NCBI GenBank assembly: GCA_021323595.1
Contig: JAJPKR010000052.1
Coordinates: forward strand, 28,359-92,358
Reading direction: 5' to 3'
DNA from: Terriglobia bacterium
GTDB taxonomy: Bacteria > Acidobacteriota > Terriglobia > Terriglobales > SCQP01
DNA: 64,000 nt
Positions 37,801 to 43,233 of the stretch are shown piece after piece. The notes beneath the pieces were generated by a model. The model was not told where the DNA came from and searched no databases. It worked only from the letters and a program-made list of their open reading frames with translations. The position numbers and the translations under genes were made by a program. Position 1 is the first letter of the stretch. Each line of letters starts with the position of its first letter.

Positions 37801-38154
37801 AATGCGCTCGATCGGCAAAGGCAGATCGCGCACGGCATCGGCGCCGACTTGGATCTCGCGCCCATCGGCGGTCTTCACCCGCACAGACACCACGTGCAAG
37901 CGCTCGTTGGCCGAGTTATACCCGAAGACCAGCTCGCCCGCCCGTTGCACGCCCGGCGGCGTCTGCACGCGCATGCTCGCGCTCTCCTCCCGCCGCATCT
38001 TCCCGTCGTTCTCGAAGCGCACCGTGGTCGCCAAACTTTCGATCAGGACCGGCTCCTGCGCCAGATTCGCCGGCGTGGCGGTGGTCTGCCCGGCTGCCGT
38101 CGCCGTCGCCAGCAGCCACGCCAGCCCCAGCCCCAGAGTCGCCGCTCTAGTCAT
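34822..38154 (-). CDS. DUF3857/transglutaminase-like protein with TPR repeats, secreted
   Basis: Signal peptide; IRYVSLSFGIG, GDCKD, FDHII, WLD triad motifs; TPRs such as WNELGRAY, AYNNAG, AHANLG. Confidence 0.88.
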   Translation of the reverse strand: MTRAATLGLGLAWLLATATAAGQTTATPANLAQEPVLIESLATTVRFENDGKMRREESASMRVQTPPGVQRAGELVFGYNSANERLHVVSVRVKTADGREIQVGADAVRDLPLPIERIAPVYSDYHQVHVTVPGVSVGAEVSYDVVTERFAPLDPGQFWFEFQFSHSAATRSETLTIDIPQGRAVILRTQPGYAATSVMSRAGRTVYFWHPPAPTSDAAPQTRVGGELPPPPDVQLTTFSSWAAVGAWYAGLQKSQLRVTPALAALAARLTAGQTSERGKAEALYDYVAKTIRYVSLSFGIGRYQPHAAEQVLANEYGDCKDQETLLAALLHAVGIPAEAALVSTKHAVDPDVPSPGQFDHIITAIPTPQGEQWLDTTTRVAAFGMLFAPIRDEEALVIPGSGAAHLERTPADPPSPMFERMTIAANADASGKLEADVKLAESGDGALVLRMLYNAIPSARWPLMDQAMIAATWQSGEVSQTDAKNLALTSAPLQLAFHSTADDFWSPGDKTSDLSLPKGLALPEADEGKPLKVGSPMTSEHVLTLRLPVGYEATAPVAVNLRRPYAQYTSQYAVTGTAATGETVTITRTMKFSEREIPAAAHDDYEAFRRAVQADLNQALPVTRTGEVAAAPASNTGAGLYAAGETAFQEGDYGRAIQLFTQAAAAAAPPADVWNELGRAYLDDNQPGPALAAFQKQIAHNPFDPYAYNNAGLAQMRLGQMQDAAQEFEQQIQINPLDRYAHANLGELLARLGQYAKAIPELQEAAKITPDDAQVHADLGMSLEQTGQTEPAIAELEKAASLAPSPELSGSIGAWMAWHHLDPERAQQYAGQGANAAAQALAAAAAAPLQARDLTLTRTLVMEWEAIGRARLQLGDTEGAIPYLRASWELMEQKETGRALGEAEAKLGHKREAAAIYAQIVAQEAPMGRIDPAALAKVKVPKSAAGILASRTDQFHADQQVLEGLIGAEAVSGAESRHRMDLQNLRTLNFPAPPKADGSAELLLRLDAGADGQGPLRIGAAQWVTGDASLRPALAHVEGAALKLAGLPGGGHAPLIAQGLLSCESVPLLHAKPTCSLVLVPMGDTRMLSFPAAGAEAAGGAAQVQSQQR

Positions 38155-38355
38155 GCCCGTCTTATCTAAGGCCGTTCAGCTCGAATTTACAAGCGCCAGC
38201 AACCCGCCGCCGTGCTCGCCCTCGCCGGCCTCCCTCCGCCTTTTCTCGCCGCTTTCTGGTTGCCGTCCCCCAATTGCCCCCGCCCGCCTCCCGCCGGCGC
38301 TTCCACCCGCCGCGCCGCCCACCGCGCCGCTTCATCCGGCGCTAGGCTGGAAGCA

Positions 38356-39711
38356 GTGGCTAGCGTTTTGCTCCTCGGCCATTACGAACTCGGCCGCCAG
38401 CCCTTCGGGCTGGCCTCGGCGGCCGCTTGGCTGCGCGCCGCGGGCTGGCCAACGGAAATCCGCGATCTCTCCCGCCAGCAGTTGGCGCCGGAGCTCGTCC
38501 GCGTCGCCAGCCTGATCGGCCTCTATTTGCCGATGCACACCGCCACGCGCCTGGCGGCGGCGCTCCTGCCCGCGCTGCGCCGCGATGCGCCCCGCGCCAC
38601 CCTCTGCTGCTTCGGCCTCTACGCGCCGCTCAACGCCGAGTTTCTGCGCGAGCTGGGCGCTTCGGTCATCCTCGGCCCGGAATTCGAAGCCGACCTCGTC
38701 CGCGTCGCGCAGGGCGTCCCGCCCCGCGACCCGGCGGCCTTGCCGCGCCTGCCGTTCCTCGTGCCCGAACGCGCCGGCTTGCCGCCGCTCGCCGACTACG
38801 CCCGCTTGCGGACCCCCTCCGGCGCGCGCGTCGCCGGCGCCACCGAAACCACCCGCGGCTGCAAGCACTTCTGCCGCCATTGCCCGATCGTGCCCGTCTA
38901 CGGCGGCCATTTCCGCGTCATTCCCCGCGCCGTGGTGCTCGAGGATATTCGCCGCCAGGTCGCCGCCGGCGCCGAGCACATCACCTTCGCCGACCCCGAC
39001 TTCTTCAACGGCCCCGCGCACGCCCTCGCCGTCGTGCGCGCCCTGCACGCGGAATTTCCCCGGCTCAGCTACGACGTCACCATCAAGATCGAGCATCTGC
39101 TCCGCCATGCCGCCCTGCTGCCCGAGTTGCGCGCCACCGGCTGCGTGCTGGTCACCAGCGCCGTCGAATCGCTCGACGATGCCGTGCTCGCGCGCTTGGC
39201 CAAGGGCCACACACGAGCTGACTTCCTGCGCGCCGTCGAACTGCTCGCCGCCCACGGCCTGGCGCTCAGCCCCACCTTCGTCCCCTTCACTCCTTGGACG
39301 ACGCCCGCCGCTTACGCCGATCTGCTGCAAACGTTGGCCCGCCTCGGCCTGGTCGAAGCCGTCGCGCCGATTCAACTGGGCATCCGCCTGCTGATCCCGC
39401 GCCGCTCCCGCATTCTCGATCTGCCCGATGCCGGCGAGTGGCTCGGCGCCTTCGAGCCGGCGACCCTCAGCTATCGTTGGCGCCATCCCGACCCCGAGAT
39501 GGATGAGCTCCAGCGCCGCGTGCAGTCGGCCATCGCCGCCGGCGTTACGCGCGGCGCGGCGCGCGCCGAGATCTTCGCCCGGCTCTGCGCCCTCGCCGCC
39601 GTGCCGCCGCCCGAGCGGCTGCCCCCGCGCGAGCGCATCCCCTACCTCGACGAACCTTGGTTCTGTTGAAGCGAGCCCACCGGCGAGCAGTTCGCTCGCG
39701 CCCTCTACTGA
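38356..39711 (+). CDS. CUAEP/CCAEP-tail-type radical SAM protein, probable selenoprotein (Sec at UGA 39667-39669)
   Basis: CKHFCRHC radical SAM motif; YELGRQPFG N-terminus; reading through UGA gives EPWF-C-U-S-E-P-TGEQFARALY* ending at TGA 39709-39711, which overlaps the next ATG; SECIS-like hairpin follows the UGA. Confidence 0.88.
39683..39699 (+). promoter_or_regulatory. bacterial SECIS-like hairpin
   Basis: GCGAGC-AGTTC-GCTCGC; loop begins 19 nt after the UGA and has GU at its 5' side. Confidence 0.7.
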
Positions 39712-41006
39712 TGCCCCGCGCCGTGCTTCTGATCACGACCACGCTCGGCTACCAAGCCGAGGAGTTTCGCGCCGCCGCCGCGCGGCTGCGCGTGCCGCTG
39801 TTCGTCGCCAGCGATCGCTGCCATCGCCTCGCCGATCCCTGGGGCGACCAAGCGTTGCCGATCCGCTTCGAGCGTCCCCGCGCCGCCGCCGCCGCCATCG
39901 CGCGCCAGCCCTGGGCGCGGGAGATCGCCGGCGTGCTCGCCCTGGGCGATCGCGCGACGCTCGCCGCCGCCTGCACCGCAGTGCGGCTGGGCTTGCGCGG
40001 CAATCCGCCCGCCGCCGTCCGCGCCGCCGCCGACAAGTTCCGCTTGCGCCGTGCGCTCCGCGCCGCCGCCCTGCCCACGCCCGCCTTCCGCCGCTGGCCG
40101 CTCGCCGCCGATCCCGCCCGCGCCGCCGCGCTCGCGGCCTATCCTTGCGTGCTCAAGCCGCTCGCGCTCTCCGGCAGCCGCGGCGTCATCCGCGCCGACG
40201 ATCGCGCCCAATTCCTCGCCGCCTGGTCGCGCATCGCGCGGCTCTTGCGGCGTCCCGAGCTGCGCGCCTGGCGCGCGCCCGGCCTCGATTTCCTTCAGGT
40301 CGAGAGCTACATCGCCGGTGAAGAAGTCGCGCTCGAAGGCTGGCTCGAAGACGGCCGCTTGCGCGTGCTCGCGCTCTTCGATAAGCCCGACCCGCTCGTC
40401 GGTCCCTACTTCGAGGAAACCATTTACGTCACCCCCTCGCGGCATCCGCCCCGCGCGCAAGCCGCCATCGCCCGCGCCATTGCCCGCGCCGCCGCCGCCG
40501 TCGGGCTCCGCCACGGCCCGCTGCACGCGGAGGCGCGCTTCAACTCGCAGGGCGTCTTCGTGCTCGAGCTCGCCGCCCGGCCCATCGGCGGCCTGTGCGC
40601 CCGCAGCTTGCGCTTCGTGCCGCCCAATGGCGGCGCCCCGCTTCCCTTCGCCGCTTGGCTGCTGCGCGCCGCGCTCGCCCCCGGCGCCGCCCCGCGCTAC
40701 CGCCGCGAGGCGCGCGCCAGCGGCGTCATGATGCTCCCCATCGGCGCCGGCGGCTTCTTGCGCGAGGTCGCCGGCCAAGACGCCGCCCGCGCCGTCCCCC
40801 ACGTCTCCGACCTCGTCATCACCGCCAAACTCGGCGAGCGCCTGGAGCCGCTGCCCGAAGGCGCCAGCTATCTCGGCTTCGTCTTCGCGCGCGCCTCCGC
40901 ACCCGCCCTCGTCGAGCGCAGCTTGCGCCAGGCCTTCGCCCGCCTCCGCCCGCGCTGGTCGCCGCCGCTGCCGCTCGCCGCCGCGCACCCGGCGCCGCCC
41001 CGCTGA
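39711..41006 (+). CDS. ATP-grasp ligase (L-amino-acid-ligase-like)
   Basis: AADKF, PCVLKP..LSGSRGV, VESYIAGEEV, ELAARPIGG, C-terminal LPEGASYLGFV; TGATG coupling to the extended radical SAM gene. Confidence 0.9.
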   Translation: MPRAVLLITTTLGYQAEEFRAAAARLRVPLFVASDRCHRLADPWGDQALPIRFERPRAAAAAIARQPWAREIAGVLALGDRATLAAACTAVRLGLRGNPPAAVRAAADKFRLRRALRAAALPTPAFRRWPLAADPARAAALAAYPCVLKPLALSGSRGVIRADDRAQFLAAWSRIARLLRRPELRAWRAPGLDFLQVESYIAGEEVALEGWLEDGRLRVLALFDKPDPLVGPYFEETIYVTPSRHPPRAQAAIARAIARAAAAVGLRHGPLHAEARFNSQGVFVLELAARPIGGLCARSLRFVPPNGGAPLPFAAWLLRAALAPGAAPRYRREARASGVMMLPIGAGGFLREVAGQDAARAVPHVSDLVITAKLGERLEPLPEGASYLGFVFARASAPALVERSLRQAFARLRPRWSPPLPLAAAHPAPPR

Positions 41007-41045
41007 CCCGCGCGCGCCGCCGCGGTCCCCGCCGGCCGCCAAAAG

Positions 41046-41077
41046 CAAAACGGCCGGGGCATGCCCCGGCCGTTTTG
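41046..41077. terminator. bidirectional intrinsic terminator
   Basis: Perfect palindrome CAAAACGGCCGGGGC-AT-GCCCCGGCCGTTTTG between convergent genes. Confidence 0.85.
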
Positions 41078-41095
41078 AACCCGTTAGTCGCGCGT

Positions 41096-41278
41096 CTAGT
41101 GCTTGGTCTTCTTCGTGGTCTTCTTGTGCATCATCTTCTTGTGATGCGCCATCTTCTTATGCTTCGTCTTCGAGTGGCTCGTGGACGTGGTCTGCACGGC
41201 CATCGGGGCGGTCGTGATGGGCGCGGCGAAAGCGCACATCCCTAGGGCCAACAGCAACGGCAACAGTCGCTTCGACAT
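41096..41278 (-). CDS. small secreted Lys/His-rich protein (60 aa)
   Basis: GGAGG RBS; signal peptide MSKRLLPLLLALGMCAFA; mature part ...SHSKTKHKKMAHHKKMMHKKTTKKTKH; terminator directly downstream. Confidence 0.8.
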   Translation of the reverse strand: MSKRLLPLLLALGMCAFAAPITTAPMAVQTTSTSHSKTKHKKMAHHKKMMHKKTTKKTKH

Positions 41279-41599
41279 GACATCCTCCGTGGGATTTTTG
41301 CCGTTCGGCGTCGCGCCGCGCGGCAAGGCGTTCTGACCCGGCCGGCGCCTCGCCCCGTGCGAGGTCCAAGCTGCAGCCAGACGATGTTGAGTATAGCGGA
41401 AACATAGCCCCGCGGAACTCGGGTGCCTCCCTCGGCGCCCGCCCCGCCCTGCTGGCCGCCAATCCCGGCCGCCCGCCGCCCGATCACGCCCGGCCCGGCG
41501 CCCAGTCCCAGCCGCCATCGGCCAGCCGTCAACCTCGCCGGCCGCCGAATTAGGCCGGCACACGCAAAAAGCTATCTTGGGCGGCGCGGCCGCGCCGGG

Positions 41600-41875
41600 C
41601 TACTTCGTCCGTTGCGGGACGTAGCCGGGGGGCAACTGCGCGCCTTCCCCGAAAAAGAACTGTTCGAGCTGTTCGTTCAGGAGCTTTTGCGCCTCCGGCG
41701 TCCACGGCGCCAGCCGATACTCGTTCATGAGCATCTTGGCGTGCTCCTTCCAAAGGCTCCAGCCTTCGGCGGAAACATTTTCGTAGATGCGCTGCCCGAG
41801 CTCGCCCGGCCATGGCGGCTCTTCCAGCCCCGGCAGATCCTTCCCCAGCTTCACGCAATGCACGATTCGCGCCAT
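41600..41875 (-). CDS. yggX: Fe(II)-trafficking/oxidative damage protection protein
   Basis: RIVHCVKLG..GL..PP.PGELGQRIYENVS..W..W....MLMNEYRL, PPGYVP. Confidence 0.93.
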   Translation of the reverse strand: MARIVHCVKLGKDLPGLEEPPWPGELGQRIYENVSAEGWSLWKEHAKMLMNEYRLAPWTPEAQKLLNEQLEQFFFGEGAQLPPGYVPQRTK

Positions 41876-41923: not shown

Positions 41924-43233
41924 TCAGTGGGGCGCGACGATGGTCCGGCCGCGGAAGATCACCGCGCGCACGTTCTTGATCGCCTCGGCGTCGCTAAGCG
42001 GATCGCCCGCCACCGCCACCAGATCGCCCTCCTGCCCGGCCGCCACCGTGCCCAGCCGCGGCAGCCCCAGCAACTCCGCGCCTCCGATCGTCGCCGATTC
42101 CAGCGCCTGCTGCGGCGTCATGCCGTACTGTGCCTCCGCCGCGATCTCGTCGAGCACCGTGCCCTTGCCCGGCTCGTAGCTCTGGTCCGAGCCGGCGGCG
42201 ATCTTCGTCCCCGCCGCCAGCGCGATGCGAAAGCTCGTTTCCATGCTATCCACCAGCGCGCGCGCCTTGCGCACCGTGGAATCCGGCAAGTGCTCCTTGG
42301 CCGCGTTGTCGATCACTGCGTGCGGGATGTACTGCGTCGGCACCAGAAACACGCCGTGCGCGCGCATCGTCGCCGCCTGCGCCGCGTCCAGGCCGGCGCC
42401 GTGCTCGATCGAATCCACGCCCGCCGCCACCGCGTCCGCGATCGCCTGGTGATTCTCGTCGTGAGCGGCGACCTTGCGATGCGCCATGTGCGCCTCCTCG
42501 ACGATCACCCGCATCTCCTCGGGCGAAAGCTGCTCGGCGTCAGGCGAGTCGAGCGGCGACATCACCCCGCCCGACGGCATCATCTTGATCACCAACGCCC
42601 CGTACTTGATCTGTAAGTGCACCGCCTTCTCGGCGTCGGCCGGCGAGTTCACATAGCCGTTCAGCGGCGTATAGAAATCCGCCATCGCATACTGCGGCCC
42701 GAACACGAGAAAGTCGCCGTGCCCGCCGGGAATCGAGATCGCATGCCCGGCGGGGATGATGTGCGGCCCGGCGAAGTCGCCCTCCTCGATCGCGTCGTGC
42801 AGGGCCACGTCGATGAACCCCTGGCTGCCGAGAATGCGCATCGCCGCCACCCCCGAGCGCAGCGCGTACTCGACTGCCTGCCGCGCCCGCAGCGCCGCCA
42901 GCGCATCGCTCGGATGCTCCTCCCGCGGCCCCGTCCACAAATGCGTGTGCGCGTCAATCAGCCCGGGCAGCACCGTGTAGCGCGACAGATCGATGCGCTC
43001 CGCCCCCGCCGGCGGCGCCAAGTCGCGGCTCACGGCGGTGATCTGCCCGTCCGTGATGATCACCGTCGCCGGCGCCAGCGGAGCCGCGCGTCGAAAATCA
43101 GCCGCCCGCAGCGCACCCACACCGTGCCGCGCTGCGCCGCCTCGGCCCCCCAGGCGCCCAGCCCCAGCGCCAATACCAGCGCCAGCGCCGCCGCCGCTGC
43201 TCCGCGCCCGCCCGTTCTCCGCCCTCGCCCCAT
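41924..43233 (-). pseudogene. secreted metal-dependent amidohydrolase (Xaa-Pro dipeptidase-like), frameshifted near 43085
   Basis: PGLIDAHTH, IKMMPSGGV, SIEHG, AGSD motifs lie in frame 41924-43120; the signal peptide and TVWVRCGRLIFDA strand lie in another frame from ATG 43233. Could be an assembly error. Confidence 0.7.

Follow-up and report, generated by a model that had tools for sequence, protein, structure and literature searches.

We describe a two-gene locus in a 64,000-nucleotide stretch of DNA from a Terriglobia bacterium of the phylum Acidobacteriota (contig JAJPKR010000052.1, positions 28,359 to 92,358), which is called the window here. Positions 38356-41006 of the window very probably constitute an operon. 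Its first gene is predicted to encode a radical S-adenosylmethionine (SAM) enzyme of the NCBIfam family NF040546, which would acquire a C-terminal arm of adjacent cysteine and selenocysteine (Sec) residues by means of a selenocysteine insertion sequence (SECIS) hairpin; its second gene encodes a conserved, translationally coupled ATP-grasp ligase. The pair lies next to the single yggX gene of the genome, and in other lineages the neighbor is a single gene for an Nfu-type Fe-S carrier.

When Sec is written as Cys, the radical SAM protein (451 residues) obtains 599.5 bits with NF040546, which bears the name "CUAEP/CCAEP-tail radical SAM (seleno)protein" and has a cut-off of 500. The match is full-length (residues 4-447 against profile positions 1-467 of 468), and the same model reaches 592.3 bits in the six-frame translation of the genome. 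By this profile evidence the window protein is a member of an already catalogued family, and the CUAEP/CCAEP family that the original prediction, made from the bare sequence, had named does exist. The next NCBIfam matches are ArsL (NF040542, 226 bits) and then one at 43.8 bits. Pfam reports a Radical_SAM domain (PF04055, 49.7 bits) and no other domain, and a sequence search of solved structures with this protein returned nothing close (best 9ccb, E = 0.0017). The family is large: it comprises at least 8000 clusters at 90% identity and 490 representatives at 50% identity (E <= 1e-30). It is represented in at least 584 species genomes, from several phyla, and in 71 of the 401 genomes that we sampled from Acidobacteriota.

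We aligned 53 diverse members, down to 32% identity. The cluster motif C169-x3-C173-x2-C176 is invariant among them, and the only invariant cysteines are these three cluster ligands and the C437-C438(U) pair of the tail, where E433, W435 and P441 are invariant as well. The family signature of the tail is E433-x-W435-[FY]-C-[C/U]-A-E-P441, and the window protein has Ser in place of Ala. Haft and Gwadz called NF040546 uncharacterized and remarked on the rarity of CU motifs, in which they saw a possible hint of heavy-metal chemistry (bioRxiv 2022.07.06.499078). That preprint is the one place where we found a relevant mention of CUAEP, CCAEP or NF040546; the main text of a 2026 review of prokaryotic selenoproteins (PMC13188914) contains neither NF040546 nor "tail radical". 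The radical SAM sequences fall into two sub-groups, one with ...PRLTE[PS]WFC, mostly located by nfu, and one with ...IPYLxEPW[YF]C, mostly located by yggX, to which the window protein belongs. Many Cys-form homologues (P0020, P0028, P0033, P0060 and others) have a tail that is 20-50 residues longer past CCAEPTxxQ and finishes in a conserved ...[DG][AG]F[VL] or ...DVDVLP; in most Sec forms the chain finishes about 11 residues past Sec.

The radical SAM open reading frame (ORF) closes at an in-frame TGA at 39667-39669. Reading through this codon gives ...DEPWF-C-U-SEPTGEQFARALY, i.e. C-U-S-E-P-T-G-E-Q-F-A-R-A-L-Y, up to a TGA at 39709-39711 that shares one base, its A, with the ATG of the ligase gene (39711-39713). 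The sequence bears out the original prediction on this read-through and on the shared base, and the second gene is translationally coupled to the first by the UGAUG overlap. We consider UGA 39667 to be almost certainly a true Sec codon, judging from the comparison of related loci. These were taken from 69 of the 70 other Acidobacteriota genomes that carry the radical SAM gene, with 7 kb on either side (G265, a partial hit, was excluded), and from a cross-phylum set of the 80 best loci among the at least 584 species genomes. After removal of two loci that are cut at this point (L035, L180) and one that holds N (L064), 146 usable loci remained, not counting the window.

The automatic gene calls suggest a different interpretation, in which UGA simply terminates translation, so that ...EPWFC would be the end of the protein and the similarity further downstream would be accidental or non-coding. 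The public gene call for the window protein (P0004) stops at ...EPWFC, and many of the 120 best database homologues stop at ...EPW[FY]C, others running on as ...EPWYCCAEPTxEQ.... This interpretation is very improbable in view of the related loci, 109 of which have TGA at the Sec codon and 37 of which have a Cys codon (TGY) and continue into AEP. The corresponding codon in the Acidobacteriota loci, window included, is TGA in 62 and TGC in seven, and is cut by a contig end in one. Both Cys at the UGA position and conservation beyond it are what the original prediction had anticipated in homologues. Furthermore, coding periodicity persists in the four codons past UGA, whose mean column identity in 55 TGA-form relatives is 0.96 for the first codon position, 0.95 for the second and 0.65 for the third, and the curated NCBI model covers the tail. 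The TGA was read without a differing letter in contigs of three further runs from two studies, none of them flagged as a potential origin of the window, and is therefore no assembly slip. Since gene callers truncate the protein at UGA, public proteomes are left without the functional tail. The residue after U or C is Ala in 141 of the 146 loci, Ser in three, Thr in one and Val in one; CUSEP occurs in three of the 109 other TGA forms, and CCSEP in the Cys forms P0186 and P0209. CUSEP, which the original prediction had singled out as a variant, is on this alignment a rare spelling of the tail and does not set apart a distinct kind.

The hairpin downstream of the UGA begins 13 nt past it and consists of a 6-bp stem and the loop AGUUC, position 2 of which is an invariant G. 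When folded as a single sequence, region 39661-39740 has no significant structure (z = 0.66), and an Rfam scan of 39500-39900 gave one sub-threshold, unrelated match and no family for the hairpin; both results are what an ordinary stop would lead one to expect. They are outweighed by covariation. In 56 TGA sequences 89.8% of cells are paired, versus 43-53% with slid partners, and there are 68 compensatory cells in five of seven pairs; none of 500 shuffles reaches the observed values. Counted over all 146 loci, TGA forms have 91.6% of the cells of the 6-bp core paired and Cys forms 47.7%, and all six core pairs are formed in 76 of 109 TGA loci but in just one of 37 Cys loci, so protein-coding constraint does not explain the hairpin. 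The original prediction had placed a SECIS-like hairpin at the right spacing, and a covarying hairpin confined to TGA forms agrees with that and speaks against a stop codon.

A complete Sec machinery, the presence of which had likewise been proposed as a check, is encoded in the window's own genome and is also difficult to reconcile with an ordinary stop: selA (521 bits), selB (346 bits) and selD (351 bits) all exceed their cut-offs, and a tRNA-Sec was found with 69.7 bits and, according to ARAGORN, the anticodon TCA. The selD gene of this genome (G000:C5:39148-40068) contains one in-frame TGA, as it does in three Cys-form genomes; SelD of the window's genome is thus probably a selenoprotein too, judging from its reading frame. 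Among the Cys-form genomes examined, a small sample of five, selD is present in four, the G218 copy being split over two frames; in the fifth, G375 (97% complete), no selD was found. It seems, then, that the system can do without selenophosphate, which argues that Sec is a better-performing residue of the arm rather than a sign of selenium as the substrate.

The second gene encodes, by its domains and its nearest relatives, an ATP-grasp ligase of the L-amino-acid-ligase (LAL) type. Its product matches ATP-grasp_4 (PF13535, 95.8 bits) and LAL_C2 (PF18603, 50.7 bits). Among proteins of solved structure, BL00235, an L-amino acid ligase, is closest to it (3vot, E = 1.6e-30), and BacD comes next (about 1e-10). 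The protein passes no NCBIfam model (37.5 bits versus the BacD cut-off of 850), and the protein-atlas clusters that resemble it are unnamed LAL-type proteins with the same domains. In-frame stops inside some ligase matches were considered as Sec codons and rejected; TGA, TAG and TAA occur there alike and were taken as natural ends.

In order to describe how the two genes are distributed, we counted orthologues in the 401 Acidobacteriota genomes, the window's own included, at E <= 1e-60 for the radical SAM protein and E <= 1e-50 for the ligase. The radical SAM gene is present in 71 genomes, the ligase gene in 81 and both in 68; three genomes have the radical SAM gene only, 13 the ligase gene only (unpublished genome G024 included) and 317 neither, and related genomes in these counts are not independent. 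Within family f2 each gene is found in five of 33 genomes, the same five for both. In 30 of the 71 genomes, the ligase gene follows the radical SAM gene immediately and on the same strand; in two it lies upstream, in two it is adjacent on the other strand, in seven it is within 10 kb, in 27 it is more distant or on a different contig, and in three it is missing. It lies inside the fetched flank in 48 of the 80 cross-phylum loci, and 11 of the 32 loci without it have fewer than 1500 bases downstream. The record titles of this set name Chloroflexota, Dormibacterota, Eisenbacteria, Methylomirabilota, Calditrichia, Pseudomonadota and Actinomycetota, with the reservation that phylum labels on metagenome bins may be wrong. 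In L117 and L160 the two genes are separated by unrelated ones (CarboxypepD_reg repeats and CHASE-PAS-GGDEF-EAL, respectively). The conserved partnership of the ligase with the radical SAM family is in line with the original prediction.

In seven of the loci that have the ligase gene only (L081-L087, from G286, G389, G357, G039, G081, G142 and G153), the orthologues are 44-50% identical, and all four sampled genomes of family f27, G024 among them, are in this state. No substitute enzyme was found beside the ligase gene in ligase-only genomes, where the candidates turned out to be unrelated genes (NmrA/DUF2867, TPR, Leu/Phe-tRNA protein transferase, GH114 and TLC-like).

ArsL, the enzyme of arsinothricin biosynthesis, offers a guide to the possible function of the pair. 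The ArsL model is the second match for all 53 diverse members (best E = 7e-92), with the third family at 1.6e-16, and by these profile comparisons ArsL is the sister family of NF040546 throughout. Of the relationship to ArsL suggested in the original prediction, the part that stands is that ArsL is the nearest named family; membership does not hold, given 226 bits against a cut-off of 450. The arsenic-binding cysteine tail of ArsL, to which the original prediction had referred, is documented: ArsL cleaves SAM to methylthioadenosine and a 3-amino-3-carboxypropyl (ACP) radical, and needs its RCCLKC tail for As(III) binding (bioRxiv 2024.02.01.577332). All three tail cysteines bind arsenic, according to bioRxiv 2026.04.29.721666.

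We propose, tentatively and by analogy, the following chain of events. The [4Fe-4S] cluster held by the CxxxCxxC motif would cleave SAM at its C-gamma-S bond and release an ACP radical, as in ArsL. The flexible Cys-Sec (or Cys-Cys) arm would present a metalloid or chalcogen atom in the active site as the radical acceptor, and transfer of the radical would yield a gamma-substituted 2-aminobutyrate amino acid, which the ligase could then couple, at the expense of ATP, to another amino acid or an amine. YggX or Nfu would supply the oxygen-labile cluster in hosts that are mostly aerobic. The proposal draws on the sisterhood with ArsL, the invariant C-[C/U] pair, the dipeptide-making relatives of the ligase and the adjacency of yggX or nfu, and an ArsL-like mode of action stays the leading idea because ArsL is the sole characterized relative.

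It is also possible, although somewhat unlikely, that the enzyme is a conventional radical SAM protein in which a 5'-deoxyadenosyl radical acts on an amino acid or on the dipeptide that the ligase makes, and in which the Cys-Sec pair serves as a redox or hydrogen-donor arm. The C-terminal Cys-Sec of thioredoxin reductase and the hydrogen-donor cysteines of radical SAM epimerases are models for such an arm. A canonical CxxxCxxC motif together with a Pfam Radical_SAM match would fit this chemistry, as would the weaker similarity to B12-binding radical SAM families (PF02310 is annotated on some homologues), the mere two chalcogen residues in the tail, the lack of metalloid genes nearby and the Cys-form genome G375, in which no selD was found, so that selenium would not be an obligatory substrate. 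However, the canonical motif is also present in ArsL and hence does not discriminate, and ArsL, the only strongly related family that has been characterized, makes no 5'-deoxyadenosine.

The genomic neighborhood bears on the cluster-supply step of the ArsL-like proposal. Two genes recur in the 70 Acidobacteriota loci (window included): yggX (PF04362), usually convergent and directly past the ligase gene, and an Nfu-type gene (PF01106), in some cases fused to an IscA-like domain. YggX is encoded in 28 loci and nfu in 17; in 12 of the 25 loci with neither, a separate ligase gene adjoins yggX or nfu, so that one or the other adjoins a member of the pair in at least 57 of 70 genomes. The nfu gene even lies between both genes on the same strand in three loci (L020, L056, L078), and it is adjacent to the ligase gene in six of seven ligase-only loci. 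In the cross-phylum set yggX lies by the pair in 43 of 80 loci, and of the 48 loci with a ligase gene 41 also have yggX and two have nfu; the yggX arrangement extends to loci from Chloroflexota, Dormibacterota, Eisenbacteria and Methylomirabilota. The window's own genome has a single yggX (PF04362, 124.3 bits at G000:C55:69973-70233, equivalent to window positions 41615-41875), and no NifU-domain gene was found in it. Among 30 genomes chosen for nfu adjacency, the nfu by the pair is the sole NifU-domain gene in 29. On a quick FastTree tree of 148 radical SAM sequences the yggX and nfu labels require at least six switches. Our reading is that the pair is kept beside the lineage's single iron or Fe-S supply gene, be it yggX or nfu; most simply, this adjacency reflects a need to maintain the cluster of the enzyme in aerobic hosts. 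This neighborhood of the pair was not found in print and is new here.

The same neighborhood would accommodate another chemistry, which we judge improbable: the arm might bear a persulfide or a selenenylsulfide as a source of sulfur or selenium, or it might ligate iron or an Fe-S unit received from YggX or Nfu, and the enzyme might insert that atom into a carbon radical. The product, extended by the ligase, would then be an amino acid with a thiol or selenol group or else a compound that binds iron, with a role in Fe-S or oxidative-stress physiology and not in the handling of metalloids. The frequency and phylogenetic breadth of the yggX/nfu association, the repeated switches between these genes and the three operons with nfu inside agree with this view, in particular because yggX and nfu are non-homologous, share a role in iron or Fe-S supply and are each normally single-copy. 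Yet yggX is usually convergent and thus not co-transcribed, its presence does not track the pair, and Fe-S helper genes by a radical SAM gene may just serve cluster repair; no cysteine desulfurase or sulfur-carrier gene is among the recurrent neighbors.

Returning to the ArsL-like proposal and the operon on which it is built, several observations weigh against them. C-gamma cleavage of SAM is not readable from sequence, Sec incorporation is something we infer, and the tail offers two chalcogen ligands versus three in ArsL. No ars gene, methyltransferase or exporter is among the recurrent neighbors within 7 kb of the 70 loci, and no resistance gene either, which leaves the co-occurrence with ars genes raised by the original prediction without a counterpart there (the own genome was not searched for ars genes). 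The ligase gene occurs without the radical SAM gene in the 13 genomes mentioned above, five of which were checked and have no radical SAM protein of the family (best match 62 bits), so the ligase is not strictly dependent on the product of the radical SAM enzyme. Conversely, G034 (100% complete) has the radical SAM gene and no ligase match even at E <= 1e-5, and in G331 (93% complete) the ligase match is weak only (E = 3e-6). Finally, yggX is class-wide regardless of the pair (166 of 401 genomes, unpublished genome G152 included; in family f2, 33 of 33 genomes versus five of 33 for the pair), and part of its adjacency may therefore be inherited gene order.

The lack of recurrent ars, exporter and resistance genes and a distribution that is consistent within genera weaken the version of the proposal in which the product is an arsenic antibiotic. 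The product suggested in the original prediction, a metalloid amino acid made into a dipeptide, is hypothetical. A widespread, genus-consistent pair that lies by Fe-S housekeeping genes, without exporter, methyltransferase or resistance gene, is atypical for an antibiotic cluster. In its most specific form, which we regard as rather unlikely, the proposal would make the pair and YggX or Nfu a cross-phylum module, in which an ArsL-type ACP enzyme forms a carbon-heteroatom bond on its Cys-Sec arm and the ligase makes a dipeptide. If true, this would be the second radical ACP chemistry in a canonical radical SAM fold and the first that depends on selenocysteine, and candidate identities for the dipeptide would include a new low-molecular-weight thiol or selenol, a metallophore and a metalloid peptide linked to the upkeep of iron-sulfur clusters in soil bacteria that live aerobically.

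A gene with a DUF169 domain (PF02596, about 230 aa) was observed beside the radical SAM gene in 11 of 150 loci (L016, L012, L116, L125, L128, L134, L158, L163, L167, L170, L175). It abuts the radical SAM gene in ten of them and follows nfu in L012; in four loci it lies between the radical SAM and ligase genes. It is directly downstream where there is no adjacent ligase gene, including G034 and the isolate Rhizohabitans arisaemae. No NCBIfam model matches the DUF169 protein, and a sequence search found no relative of solved structure; the literature mentions the domain in passing only, in a selenium-linked gene survey and beside hgcAB of Nitrospina. The DUF169 protein may be an alternative or an extra partner.

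Coordinates of the features in the window are collected in Table 1. We prefer the GTG at 38356 to an upstream GTG at 38212 as the start of the radical SAM gene because the homologue alignment begins at 38356. The "own -10 element" of the original prediction received no support from a sigma-70 consensus scan, which listed no promoter site in 38000-41700. Its terminator fared better: the 14-bp hairpin past the ligase gene probably terminates transcription from both sides, of the operon and of the genes that converge on it, although a consensus terminator scan omits it because its T run is just 4. Between this hairpin and yggX there is a small ORF (41096-41275, minus strand) that begins like a signal peptide (MSKRLLPLLLALG...) and is rich in His and Lys at its end (...HKKMAHHKKMMHKKTTKKTKH). 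A Pfam search of a longer ORF at 41099-41563 gave no match, and the gap between the ligase gene and yggX in other loci is too short for a gene like ORF 41096-41275. The other flanking genes of the window, namely gyrB, ORF 41924-43120 (amidohydrolase-like, by eye only) and a 1110-aa ORF, are absent from the 89 other loci of the phylum sample (L012-L100).

Table 1. Features of the radical SAM-ligase locus, in window coordinates.
Feature	Position	Strand	Remarks and basis
Predicted radical SAM selenoprotein gene	38356..39711	+	451 codons; likely GTG start; Sec codon 39667-39669; stop TGA 39709-39711
CxxxCxxC motif CKHFCRHC (C169, C173, C176)	38860..38883	+	predicted [4Fe-4S] cluster ligands; sequence reading
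TGT TGA, predicted vicinal Cys437-Sec438 of tail	39664..39669	+	sequence reading; family alignment
SECIS-type hairpin	39683..39699	+	stem 39683-39688/39694-39699; loop AGUUC 39689-39693; covariation
ATP-grasp ligase gene, L-amino-acid-ligase type, 431 aa	39711..41006	+	Pfam domains; solved relatives
GC-rich 14-bp hairpin between A run and T run	41046..41077	.	fold -28.9 kcal/mol, z = -2.9
yggX (Fe(2+)-trafficking protein, PF04362)	41600..41875	-	convergent on operon; PF04362 match

The family to which the window protein is assigned is large, catalogued and present in a dominant group of soil bacteria, and ArsL, its sole characterized relative, performs a chemistry that was thought unique. The sisterhood with ArsL, the invariance of the Cys-Sec arm and the constant ligase partner turn an annotation label into a testable question, for which a cultured carrier exists (Rhizohabitans arisaemae K14-0274, locus L175, Cys form). 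Neither the constant ligase partner nor the family-wide sisterhood with ArsL was found in print, and we found no account of a partnership of NF040546 with the ligase, yggX or nfu. Our literature search likewise returned nothing relevant on radical SAM selenoproteins of Acidobacteria, on ArsL with ATP-grasp enzymes or on L-amino acid ligases with radical SAM enzymes; the supplements of the ArsL papers may hold family alignments or networks.

When compared with known systems, the window protein resembles NF040546 in its full-length match over the cut-off, its CxxxCxxC motif and its E-x-W-[FY]-C-[U/C]-x-E-P tail with a UGA-encoded Sec, and differs in reading CUSEP instead of CUAEP. With ArsL it shares the radical SAM core, the canonical motif and a vicinal chalcogen tail. 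However, the score remains below the ArsL cut-off as given above, and the tail is WFCUSEP (in the family C-U or C-C followed by AEP), with two ligands in place of the three of RCCLKC. Moreover, neither arsM or arsQ nor any ars operon context is among the recurrent neighbors, and NF040546 is partnered with an ATP-grasp ligase and consists mostly of predicted selenoproteins.

Dph2 also transfers a radical ACP group from SAM, in this case onto a protein histidine and without the radical SAM fold (bioRxiv 2024.02.01.577332). The window pair would similarly follow a radical ACP transfer with an ATP-dependent ligation, and no protein substrate is indicated for it. The ATP-dependent ligation step of diphthamide synthesis is carried out by Dph6, which is not an ATP-grasp enzyme. 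MerA and thioredoxin reductase have a flexible C-terminal Cys-Cys or Cys-Sec pair that captures a soft metal or passes electrons on to a buried active site; these flavoprotein disulfide reductases are unrelated in fold, and the resemblance is an analogy only. The closest parallels for the second gene are BL00235 (PDB 3vot) and BacD/YwfE, the alanine-anticapsin ligase, which share the ATP-grasp_4 and LAL_C2 domains with it, although the orthologue group of the window ligase is also found without the radical SAM gene in some genomes. These solved relatives make dipeptides, and BacD does so by coupling an amino acid to another, unusual one that serves as a warhead.

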